DNA of 64,000 bases from NCBI RefSeq assembly GCF_016026235.1, contig NZ_CP065613.1, one strand, 5' to 3'. Made by a program: the position numbers. Shown one piece after another: positions 17,501 through 20,500 of this stretch (position 1 is its first letter; each line of letters begins with the position of its first letter). The DNA comes from Escherichia coli. Its GTDB lineage: Bacteria; Pseudomonadota; Gammaproteobacteria; Enterobacterales; Enterobacteriaceae.

Positions 17501-20500
17501 CCCCGCCTGGTTCGTGGCGATTTTTTCGCCATGAACCATAGTGTTTTTGTCCTGTTCCTGTTCTTTCTCCTGTTCCTGTTCTTGGCTTCGAAGCCCCTTT
17601 AAAGCCCCTTCGAAGCCCCTTACCGTATTTCGGTTGTTATTTCGCCTTACATCCAGATGAAAATCCGTCTTATATCTGTCATAAAACGCTGAAAGAAAAG
17701 CGTTTTCAGGTAATGACGCATATTCACTCCTGACACCTGCACAACGGTTATCGCCAGGCTTTAACTTTCCCCCAACCTGCCAGGCTGCCATTTCATGGAC
17801 CCAGACCATCTCGGAATCATGGTCATAACTGCAAAAACCCACTTCGACAGCCCTTCGAAGCCCCTTCGAAGCCCCTTCCGGACCAAGCCCGGTTTCATGA
17901 GCAAGGTACAAAACCGGCAGGTAATACAGGCCCAGCATGTTTGCGTGAGGGGATGTCATCAGGTAAAAAGCAACCACCTGCGCTTCTGCGCCTGCCTTTC
18001 TGAGTTCTTTCCCCGTTTCTCCCAGCCAGAATCGCGGGGAAACTTTTGCGTAATCACGCATGTCCACCTCATCTGGTGCCGAACCTTCCTCCGGATATAA
18101 TCTGTGATTCCCCAATCAACAGAACCAGAGGAGGTTCGACATGTCTTTTTTGAAAAGCCTTTATCGGGCTCATATATTAAAAGTTGCAGCAACAAATCAC
18201 TGGCAAGAAGGAACAGATGAAATGTTGCCGGATTACCGGGCATGGCTGCGCGCCGAAACATACCTTCGTCTCGATATGCTGATTAACGATCTTCAAAAAG
18301 AGGCTCCATCCACTCAAACCCTTCAGGGTGTCGGCGCTGTTCGCGTTCTGGTATCTCGCCATAACGCTCTCTCAGTAACTGAAGTGCGTCAGCTTTCTTT
18401 TGCTGAACTGATTTTCTTGCTTCAGCCAGCTCTGGAATCAGTGAATATCCCATCGGAGGTGTTCCGGTATCCGCCCCACGTGAACCAACAGCTACAAGCT
18501 GCACAAGACAACAGGCATGCTGGATTGACTCCCTGCTCAGAGGCTGAATGGGATCATTCTCTGCTGAAGAGATACCAAGATTTGTATAATCCTCAATAAG
18601 CCGGGCGCACGCTTCAGCATCAGCCAGTTTTTTTCTGGTTTCCTTGCGCTGTTCTCTGACGGACAAACGCCAGAGCAGCGCATTGGCTTTATGCATCAGC
18701 CACTCTGCCAGTTCCACATCAGATAAACCGCCACGCCAGATGTGTGGACTGTTTTCGTAAACGCTCAGTGTCAGTTTTTTGTCATTGGTCATATTTATTG
18801 CCCCGTCAATGCACAGCCAGAGTATTTCCTGCCGGACCACCACGATTCATCTGATCGAACAGAACGATCGCTGATGCAACGAAATCATCGATATCTTTCA
18901 CCAGCTGTTCCTGCGTCTCCAGCAGTTCCCGAAAATAAACTGAACTGTGGCTGCGCATTCGGGCCACCAGCGGAGGCGGCATTGCCTTTTCGATCGCTGG
19001 TAACAACGCCTGAATTTTTTTAACAGCATCAGGGGTGTCTTTCTCTATCCAGCGGAAAATTTTCTGGGTATTGCGAGCCAGGGCTTCCGGATGGCTGTCG
19101 TCGTACAGTTCAGGGAACGTCATCCCCAGTTCGAAATAAGTCCGGGCTATCTCAGCCGCCGGAACTTTCTCACCATCAGGATATGCCCATGCATTCATCG
19201 CCATACGGATGTGCTCATGCTTGATTTTCATGAATCACCCCCCGCCGATGGTTGTGTGTTAGCCTGAAACTCAGCAGGCAAGCCGTCAGTTGGGTTGGGG
19301 TAGGTTTTACTGTCAATCTCATGTGGGGTCACCACCCATCCCGTTGCTTCACACCAACGTAATATTTTTTCTCCTGTAAGTTTTGCACGCCCCGTTATAA
19401 CGTGGCTGACCATCCCCTGGGATGCGCCAACAATCTCAGCAAATGAACTCTGGGTTATATGAAAATGATGCAAATATTCTCCAAGATTCATAATCCGCCC
19501 TATGTGATGTGTTACCAACGCATAATTAATAGCACTGTTATTTTTGAAAGTAAATAGCGATGCTATTTCAAAGTGATTAGCAATCTTATTAGAATTGGAT
19601 GTATGAAAAGAAAATCACTGTCAGACACCGACCTCAACGCCGCCAGAAGACTGAAAGAAATCTGGATGGCAAAGAAATCTCAGTTGGGATTGACTCAGGA
19701 ACGTGCGGCGGAAATTATGGGGTTTTCAACACAAGGGGCGGTAAGTCACTACCTAAATGGTCAAACCCCACTAAACCTTGAGGCTGTTCTAAAGTTTGCT
19801 GGCTTACTGAAAGTTCCCCCTGAGTCAATCAGGCCAGACATGGCAGATTTGCTGCAAATTGCAAGGATGTATTGTCGAGAACCACAGCAAGATAACATAG
19901 TCGCATTACCAGCAGACACAGAACAAACAGAGGATGAACTACCGTTTGCCGTAGAGCCGATGGAACGAGATTTAATCCATACGTTCAGAGCTTTTCCGAA
20001 AGAAGATCAAGAACACATGCTTCAGGAGATGAAAGATAAAAAAGAATCAATGGATCGTACGGTTGCGCGGTGGTTAGCTGCACAAAAAGGCCGTCGCGCC
20101 TAAATCAGAGGAGATATGTAAAATGAGTACAGTCCTTTCCCCAATGGTTTCAGAATTTGAGACAGTTGAGCAAGAAAATAGTTACAACGAATGGCTGCGG
20201 GCCAAAGTAGCAGCAAGCCTCGCGGATCACCGCCCGGCGATTCCGCATGATGAGGTAATGGCGGAAATGGAACAAATTATTGCCCAAATTGCTGCTGCAA
20301 CTCACAGAGGTGAATAATGTTACCCGTTTTATGGCTACCATCTGCTCGTGATGATTTGCGCCAGATCGTAGCCTACATAGCTAAAGAAAATCCCGCGGCA
20401 GCACGCAGAATGAAAATTCGAATTGAAACATCCGTTTTGCCGCTCACAGAGCATCCTTACCTGTATCCTCCAAGCGAGCGAGTTCTTGGTCTTCGTGAAA

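Follow-up and report, generated by a model that had tools for sequence, protein, structure and literature searches.

Phased 9-bp repeats within a prophage replication initiator gene of Escherichia coli as candidate iterons of an intragenic origin

Where does a lambdoid prophage keep its replication origin when its initiator belongs to a family without a Pfam model? We addressed this question for a 64,000-nucleotide stretch of the Escherichia coli chromosome (contig NZ_CP065613.1 of assembly GCF_016026235.1; hereafter, the window), in which the gene for a replication initiator, or replisome organizer, contains two clusters of short direct repeats (clusters A and B; Table 1). An earlier note on this DNA had proposed that the repeats could be iterons of an origin lying inside the initiator gene. 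We consider it probable, at about three chances in four, that the repeat clusters are the iterons of an intragenic prophage origin and are bound by the gene's own product. This reading, made by sequence comparison, is supported by the fixed position of the arrays in the gene, their frozen codons, inversions that leave the position unchanged, the co-variation of repeat type with protein type, and a layout like that of phage SPP1.

Two phased arrays conserved as DNA

Repeats are present at both sites that the earlier note had pointed out inside the replication gene, as indicated by Tandem Repeats Finder (TRF; 17586-17621 with 3.3 copies, 17842-17878 with 3.4 copies) and by a scan for exact copies. 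The period found by TRF is 11 bp, and the 12-bp unit first claimed has to be corrected. The unit reads GAAGGGGCTTC on the coding (minus) strand and has the 9-mer AAGGGGCTT as its invariant core. Both strands of the window together hold five exact copies of AAGGGGCTT, all of them within the two 11-bp-phased clusters, for a chance expectation of about 0.5 copies of a given 9-mer (128,000 positions / 4^9). Among the relatives, 304 of 310 neighboring pairs of exact copies show the 11-bp spacing, and the 2-nt spacer between the cores is variable (first base C in 54% and second base G in 44% of 272 distinct iteron contexts). The TTCGAA palindrome, which had been taken as a part of each repeat, corresponds to the junction CTT-CG-AAG and is produced only by the commonest spacer; because the spacer varies, the palindrome is not conserved and was rejected as a functional unit. 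A G-quadruplex was considered and dropped, as many clusters hold just two G-runs and their orientation is free. No DnaA boxes were found in or near the initiator gene; the closest one, at 16892, belongs to the next gene, and the window as a whole holds about as many as expected by chance.

Cluster B is located where the N-terminal domain of the encoded protein passes into the linker, and cluster A encodes E-G-A-S-K-G-L-R-R-A-V, which maps to the third helix of the winged helix on the structure model. The two peptides compared in the earlier note (GASKGLRRA and GFEGALKGLRS) are indeed alike, but they are merely one-frame translations of the DNA repeat. As 11 bp is not a multiple of three, adjacent units are read in different frames, and successive units fall in all three of them (AAG GGG CTT / A AGG GGC TT / AA GGG GCT T).

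To judge from codon usage and orientation among homologues, the repeats are almost certainly a selected DNA element. In a codon alignment of 22 representatives with <96% nucleotide identity, including phages of Shigella (the Shiga toxin (Stx) phage 75/02), Klebsiella, Acinetobacter, and Ralstonia, the five codons of cluster A that are conserved at the amino acid level (GAA GGG GCT ... AAG GGG) each use one synonymous codon in 22 of 22 sequences, whereas the other conserved codons (n = 66) have a mean majority-codon frequency of 0.66 (Mann-Whitney p = 1.6e-4). The two glycines of the iterons are always encoded by GGG, and nine other invariant glycines score 0.32-0.57. Cluster A is invariant in the Shigella Stx phage and in the Klebsiella and Acinetobacter phages. 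Cluster B is flipped to AAGCCCCTT with its position kept in Stx phage 75/02, Acinetobacter phage B1251, Ralstonia phage NK-7, and most of the distant metagenomic relatives, and this inversion turns the peptide EGALKGL into (E/Q)APSKPL. Copies were also detected in non-coding DNA: Acinetobacter phage B1251 has extra ones in the 40 bp before the start codon, and in a Bacillus genome four lie upstream of the homologous gene, at a distance of about 150 bp.

An adjacent AT-rich region that might unwind, which the earlier note had suggested looking for, is present between the clusters (at about 17622-17722, GC content 0.37). The lowest GC content of the gene (0.37-0.38) is reached at 17630-17719, and a dip at gene positions +340..+400 recurs in most of the enterobacterial and Acinetobacter relatives that were compared (mean 0.36-0.40 in 11 sequences, minimum 0.20); it is weak in one related locus (L050) and was not seen in the Ralstonia or ST13 homologues. 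On the other side, a hexamer tract directly follows cluster B (3' in the gene) in all relatives examined, those of the ST13 type included. This tract has the strongest AT skew of the region, a coding-strand purine content of 75-85% (0.75-0.85 in the relatives), and a GC content of about 0.45-0.5.

Occurrence of the arrays in phages and bacterial genomes

To profile the association of the arrays with the N-terminal domain (hereafter, N-domain), IMG/VR loci were selected by protein similarity (80 loci at 74-100% identity, 65 of them distinct). The earlier note had named the absence of the repeats from homologous initiator genes as a finding that would tell against iterons, and the opposite was found: both clusters are present in 65 of 65 distinct loci, at +185/+196 and about +440/+451(/+463) from the ATG, with cluster B always falling at gene positions +425..+463. 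A scan of IMG/VR with a DNA pattern of two iterons and a half, and thus blind to the protein, also returned 80 loci. Of these, 68 encode an N-domain homologue by tblastn (30-100% identity), and their iterons occupy the same positions in the gene. Most of the other 12 are very distant, low-GC relatives ('MSYRYTNTEKW...IEGALKGLxRGL...') that share the same two-cluster plan and have GIGNGIGN, KDMDMD, or EKEKEK linkers; the genomes matching them are metagenome-assembled genomes (MAGs) of Bacteroidota. Across the iteron-selected loci, cluster A has the G orientation nearly everywhere it was detected, and cluster B occurs in either orientation.

In the genomes of 100,044 species, three phased iterons were found at 19 loci, with a chance expectation of about 3e-5 (27 bases, 6e11 positions). 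Twelve of these are in or beside genes of the family, in at least six phyla, i.e., in Cupriavidus, Polyangia, an alphaproteobacterium, Acetomicrobium, three Bacteroidota, Nitrospira, a deltaproteobacterial MAG, Sutterella, Salinicoccus, and Bacillus. The remaining seven, from Streptomyces, Methylobacterium, Halothiobacillus, Gallionella, and Shewanella, have no adjoining family gene; they may be unrelated 11-bp minisatellites and are not counted as support. The Shewanella arrays consist of 6-12 perfect tandem copies of AAGGGGCTT plus a 2-nt spacer in non-coding DNA (L298 421-550, L306 11406-11470, L308 6515-6622); in two genomes they adjoin a YfjJ/YagK-like open reading frame (ORF), and no replisome-organizer gene was seen in the DNA around them.

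The cluster A array was found in enterobacterial, Acinetobacter, Burkholderiales, and Bacteroidota lineages. In the minus-strand gene of an uncultured Sutterella (L307), the cluster A array (528-569) is inverted and encodes a proline-rich insertion, SFEAPSKPLSSPLQGPLEG. This inverted array sits in an inserted loop before the helix and not within it, a placement that fits because the proline-rich APSKPL would not be expected to form part of a helix.

The breadth of the family was assessed through the Salinicoccus protein, which matches phrog_1701 (4.3e-36) and phrog_6251 (1.9e-56) and from which tblastn reaches phage Gamma, E2, Acinetobacter phage B1251, and Klebsiella ST13. A profile search recovered 22,550 representatives (50% clustering, E<=1e-3) of the N-domain superfamily (PHROG 1701/6251), all matched at the N-terminus, and no Pfam model matched the N-domain of any family member tested. 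Direct comparison of enterobacterial with Bacteroidota-type N-domains using hhalign gave a weak result (probability 2.5%, E 0.018), and their homology therefore rests on collinearity, on hidden Markov model links via intermediate sequences, and on tblastn chaining. A search of a plasmid collection for replicons dependent on the initiator gene yielded misassembled pieces of prophage or chromosome and was uninformative. In the literature, the motif strings matched only unrelated primer or eukaryotic sequences, and none of the top-ranked papers brings the motif together with phage or iteron terms; nothing on this origin is said in papers on the replication regions of Eru-type Stx phages or in those on POCJ13 and 75/02.

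The type of repeat differs with the type of N-domain. In the clade of Klebsiella phage ST13-OXA48phi12.4 (80-99% to ST13), with an N-domain 34% identical to that of the window, the repeats at both positions are of the form AAAGGGTT(T/C): GAAAGGGTTTC occurs twice at the cluster A position, and AAAGGGTTC occurs twice at the cluster B position together with a degenerate inverted copy, followed by (CAGGAA)n. Phage Tritos, with an unrelated N-domain and the C-terminal module (C-module) of the window, has GTCACG four times and then five times in two clusters at a spacing of about 10-11 bp, the second cluster being followed by a DKDTDKDTDQEDQ tract and a DKDTDK linker. Among N-domains that are homologous by tblastn chaining and alignment, those of Bacillus phage Gamma and C. 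difficile phage phiCD505 are accompanied by CGATACGT and then EKEKEK or NNNK tracts, and those of Geobacillus phage E2, Psychrobacillus phage PVJ1, and Listeria phage LP-030-3 by GATAC-type repeats and then EKEKEK tracts. As read in these genes, the general plan is one of phased repeats at the end of the N-domain followed by a low-complexity linker, with the repeat sequence specific to the clade, which is how initiator/iteron pairs behave.

Protein modules and prophage setting

The ORF listing places the initiator gene at 16952-18115 with a TTG start. All homologues begin with the methionine of 'MRDYAKV', so translation likely starts from the ATG at 18061-18059. The whole protein matches PHROG 1701 'DnaD-like helicase loader' at 6e-143, and the matches split into an N-terminal part (phrog_25210 at 5.8e-109, and 12196) and a C-terminal part (phrog_3729/270 'replication initiation protein', spanning aa 183-387 of the listed ORF). 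No match to the whole protein was obtained at E<=0.01 in the entire Pfam-A library. Of 5,426 complete E. coli genomes, 546 carry the gene in full length. Its RefSeq name is simply 'DNA-binding protein', and no label now in use goes beyond this name, 'primosomal protein I', or 'hypothetical'.

Table 1 Features of the initiator gene and its surroundings in the window (coordinates are window positions).
Feature	Position	Strand	Details
Replication initiator / replisome-organizer gene	16952-18061	minus	369 aa plus stop
N-terminal winged-helix domain (predicted), proposed to bind the iterons	17622-18061	minus	about aa 1-147
Candidate iteron cluster A	17847-17877	minus	exact AAGGGGCTT at 17869-17877 and 17858-17866; degenerate third copy at 17847-17855; 11-bp phased
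Candidate iteron cluster B	17584-17621	minus	exact AAGGGGCTT at 17613-17621, 17602-17610, and 17591-17599; half-site AAGCC at 17584-17588
AT-rich stretch between the clusters, candidate DNA-unwinding region	17622-17722		directly 5' (in the gene) of cluster B
(GAACAG)n hexamer tract	17542-17583	minus	encodes QEQEQEKEQEQ, low-complexity linker; TRF period 6/18
Exchangeable C-terminal module: linker and putative helicase-recruitment domain	16955-17541	minus	
hok/sok toxin-antitoxin locus	14425-14750		Rfam sok, 118.9 bits
DicF small RNA	21759-21810		
Phage tRNA cluster Gly-Thr-Lys-Met	11365-11674		
Chromosomal tRNA-Ser(cga)	26223-26312		
Four tRNA-Asn genes	27304-45990		

The N-domain is predicted to be a winged helix, which is the type found in G38P-type replisome organizers. 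Foldseek listed the N-domain of the staphylococcal plasmid initiator RepA (4pt7, 4pta) at a non-significant E of 0.21-0.25. Residues 146-160, encoded by cluster B and the hexamer tract, have a predicted local distance difference test score (pLDDT) <50 and correspond to a disordered linker, so the constraint on the protein is weakest where the DNA signal sits. The hexamer tract is also the mosaic junction of the N- and C-modules (BLAST breakpoint at about 17546/17547). Phages Tritos, Evi, and vB_EcoS-689R5 have only window positions 16900-17547 in common with this locus (95-98% identity), and Klebsiella and Acinetobacter phages only about 17546-18061 (68-76%); the C-module is 95-98% identical in phages that bear a different N-domain.

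The last 25 amino acids of the C-module, SGTNNQRCVNHISEPDNEIPPGFRG (16955-17029, minus strand), are nearly a copy of the C-terminal tail of DnaT, a primosomal protein of the E. coli host. The stretch SEPDNEIPPGFRG aligns with the C-termini of the DnaT chains 6aep (E 9.6e-4), 2ru8, and 9zbt, and with positions 156-179 of 179 in the NCBIfam DnaT model. This suggests that the tail is a possible mimic that recruits host helicase-loading factors, instead of a phage P or DnaC protein. Relatives with other C-modules have DnaC-like or primase-helicase genes after the initiator, and some relatives of the N-domain have a C-terminal PF09524 or a DnaC-like neighbor. The C-module of the window has no Pfam match, PF09524 (Phg_2220_C) and DnaB_2 included, and the next gene encodes a DUF977 protein. 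Within the C-module, AAGCCGATT occurs as three exact copies and one near copy (17326-17458, minus strand; spacing 24/72/24 nt) and nowhere else in the window. In the disordered linker they give rise to peptide repeats of the PEADS type, and Shigella phage 75/02 Stx has them as well. With their in-frame spacing, they suggest a duplication at the peptide level and not a DNA site.

The minus-strand gene order is cro-like, YdaT/CII-like, one unknown ORF, and then the initiator, i.e., the position of lambda O. Genes for DUF977, DUF4406, and Ead/Ea22 proteins follow, and no P- or DnaC-like gene was detected among the window genes 3' of the initiator. The hok/sok locus, DicF, the phage tRNA cluster, and the chromosomal tRNA-Ser and tRNA-Asn genes indicate that the window is E. 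coli chromosome with a lambdoid prophage beside the latter tRNA genes. Upstream of the initiator, two antisense ORFs (18141-18599 on the plus strand and 18283-18843 on the minus strand) overlap by about 317 bp. Their strong family matches are to NCBIfam 'ECs1072 family phage-associated protein' (7.6e-29) and phrog_8304 (1.7e-91), respectively. It may be that both strands are coding, or that one of these families was assembled from shadow ORFs of the other.

Readings of the arrays and comparison with known origins

If the arrays are origin iterons, several N-terminal winged-helix domains would bind the 11-bp-phased AAGGGGCTT copies on one face of the DNA helix. Cluster B would be the origin core, being at the junction in every family gene with these arrays, and cluster A an auxiliary array about 245 bp upstream, within the coding sequence of helix 3. 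The two clusters bracket the AT-rich stretch of about 100 bp, and the distance between them could allow wrapping or looping of the DNA and its opening, either in the AT-rich stretch or in the purine-rich hexamer tract after cluster B. The C-module with its DnaT-like tail would then bring in the helicase via the host helicase-loading machinery, which would account for the absence of a P- or DnaC-like gene. Functionally this is the arrangement of lambda O and SPP1 G38P; by homology the initiator belongs to the replisome-organizer N-domain superfamily of PHROG 1701/6251.

Several points weigh against the arrays being origin iterons. Both candidate unwinding stretches are only moderately AT-rich (GC content 0.37 and about 0.45-0.5), and the prophage may be defective. 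The searchable literature yielded no experimental work on any member with AAGGGGCTT repeats, and for these arrays we infer both the binding and the firing of the origin. Part of the conservation of cluster A may be driven by the protein, as it encodes a structured helix, an explanation that is insufficient since the third codon positions are frozen too. The last point concerns specificity. The N-domains of a Salinicoccus halodurans prophage (L309, with three copies of AAGCCCCTT) and of phage PVJ1 (L312, with GATAC-type repeats) are 64% identical and have nearly the same helix 3 (RETVDKLLNRF vs RETVEKLLKRF). Therefore, helix 3 is not a simple specificity reader, or the repeat cassette was swapped independently of the domain: a few other residues may set specificity, the cassettes may have been swapped ahead of the protein, or helix 3 may not be the main reader. 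In this pair, the cassette was apparently traded without the domain. The comparison lowers confidence in the simple picture that helix 3 reads the iteron and leaves confidence in a DNA-level function as it was.

Three other explanations were weighed. It is very improbable that the protein needs a duplicated EGAxKGL motif and that the repeats have no function as DNA. The clusters do translate to similar peptides in the window, and cluster A codes for part of a confidently folded, family-conserved helix, but this alternative, allowed for in the earlier note, was rejected on the alternating reading frame of the units, on the frozen third codon positions that are confined to the repeat, and on the flips of cluster B, which then encodes a different, proline-rich peptide. 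The arrays in non-coding DNA and the disorder of the cluster B peptide also contradict it. We regard it as unlikely, if less so, that the arrays are bound by another factor (the DUF977 or phrog_8304 product, or a host factor) and serve regulation, partition, or packaging. Such a factor would be in keeping with a 9-mer that stays unchanged from phylum to phylum as N-domain identity drops to 20-30%, with the near-identical helix 3 beside different repeats in the Salinicoccus prophage and PVJ1, and with the Shewanella arrays next to an unrelated ORF. However, the only constant neighbor of the arrays is the N-domain gene (what lies downstream is DnaC-like, primase-helicase, DUF977, or none of these), the repeat type follows the N-domain clade, and the position and flanks are those of the proven SPP1 origin.

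We give somewhat less credit still to the view that the repeats and the hexamer tract are mainly recombination linkers for module exchange, or structural DNA (curved or with G-runs), without recognition by a protein. The mosaic breakpoint falls in the hexamer tract beside cluster B in both directions, and G-runs phased at 11 bp are expected from general DNA mechanics to be anisotropically bendable. Recombination, however, needs neither frozen 9-mers nor exact 11-bp phasing, clusters of two copies are unable to form a four-run quadruplex, and a cluster within the domain, the flips, the upstream non-coding copies, and the domain-specific repeat types would all be left unexplained. The exchange of modules at the hexamer tract is better viewed as a by-product.

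Beyond an origin in this one prophage, a wider proposal is possible, and we hold it tentatively and with more doubt than belief: that AAGGGGCTT at 11-bp spacing is an origin signal, ancient and almost frozen, in a family of winged-helix phage initiators that is very large and has no Pfam model, with the array in helix 3 coupling the site to its reader. The 9-mer is unchanged in prophages of Proteobacteria, Bacteroidota, Firmicutes, Synergistota, Nitrospirota, and Myxococcota, with protein identity falling to 20-30%. In the enterobacterial, Acinetobacter, and Bacteroidota genes, one array lies within the codons of helix 3 (E-G-A-x-K-G-L), and helix 3 is the recognition helix in the canonical winged-helix topology. 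If the proposal is true, the binding site and the reading head would share the same nucleotides, so that their evolution would be coupled, which could explain the freeze.

Intragenic origins are known from lambda O and SPP1 gene 38, and the probable one here lies in a protein family for which such an origin had not been described. Three features go beyond the known picture, namely the second array in the codons of helix 3, the loop insertion in Sutterella, and the constancy of the 9-mer across at least six phyla. The analysis provides a concrete candidate origin (about 17540-17890) and a candidate origin-binding domain for a widespread, unannotated replication module that is also present in Stx-converting Shigella and E. 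coli phages and in Klebsiella and Acinetobacter phages. The N-domain family comprises >22,000 clusters (50% identity) and lacks a Pfam model. Origins in thousands of phage genomes could therefore be annotated with one simple criterion at the DNA level, namely repeats phased at 11 bp where the domain meets the linker, with a low-complexity tract after them. One iteron kept constant across phyla, with an array in the codons of a recognition helix, would be an unusual case of overlapping protein and DNA codes, and the DnaT-tail mimic suggests how an initiator without its own helicase loader may tap the helicase-loading machinery of the host. Specialists would expect this kind of system; the case is clean, widespread, unannotated, and directly testable.

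Initiators of iteron plasmids (RepA, pi, TrfA) are winged-helix proteins that bind direct repeats beside an unwinding element, and in these general respects (winged-helix initiator, directly repeated sites, and adjacent unwinding element) they resemble the system in the window. Plasmid iterons are about 17-22 bp long, about 22 bp apart, and outside the rep gene, and no sequence homology was found between the initiator of the window and those of iteron plasmids.

Phage lambda has four iterons of about 19 bp in one cluster, unlike the 9-bp cores at 11-bp spacing in two clusters seen here. Shared with lambda O are the map position after cro and a cII-like gene and, on the reading favored here, an origin in the linker-coding stretch of the initiator gene. 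A sequence relationship is lacking (no Pfam-A match), and the window has no P gene. Because of the missing Pfam match, the protein is not assigned to the lambda O family (Phage_rep_O), and the name 'DNA replication protein O' in some GenBank records is the annotators' own. In lambda O, the N-half and the iterons form one type-specific module and the C-half is exchangeable (for lambda, partly from PMC5499656). The same was found here, where the N-half and repeats act as one specificity module with an exchangeable C-half (breakpoint at about 17547; phage Tritos).

The 'DnaD-like' organizers of Firmicutes (Bacillus phages Gamma, Cherry, and Wbeta, Geobacillus phage E2, and Staphylococcus phage 80alpha ORF20) have an N-domain homologous to that of the window via the Salinicoccus protein, and they likewise show junction repeats followed by an EKEKEK or NNNK linker. 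They differ in having CGATACGT or GATACnGTATC repeats, no cluster A, and a C-terminal PF09524 or DnaB_2. To our knowledge, none of those examined has a mapped origin. For phage 80alpha, ORF20 and ORF21 suffice for autonomous replication, and ORF20 has been proposed to hold the origin in its own gene, like G38P and lambda O (Neamah et al., PMC5499656).

In SPP1, the origin oriL is embedded in gene 38, where G38P binds the AB boxes, the adjacent AT-rich region is the DNA-unwinding element and is opened, and a 356-bp fragment is necessary and sufficient for theta replication in vitro (Seco and Ayora, PMC5737612). We read the repeats in gene 38 as GAAA(C/A)GACAC, with four to five copies at a spacing of about 11 bp right after the N-domain, followed by an AT-rich stretch that encodes NNNDNNENNDNK. 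The window differs from SPP1 in its repeat sequence (AAGGGGCTT), in an N-domain of which that of G38P was not detected as a homologue, in the second cluster inside the winged-helix coding region, and in a C-module that has a DnaT-like tail, without PF09524 and without helicase-loader or helicase genes after it. PF09524, the C-terminal Pfam domain of G38P, is carried by some relatives of the window N-domain. G38P and the initiator of the window are both two-module proteins with an N-terminal DNA-binding domain, and in both genes repeats at a spacing of about 11 bp lie at the domain junction, inside the initiator's own gene, and directly after them comes a strand-asymmetric tract of low complexity, which codes for a charged linker.

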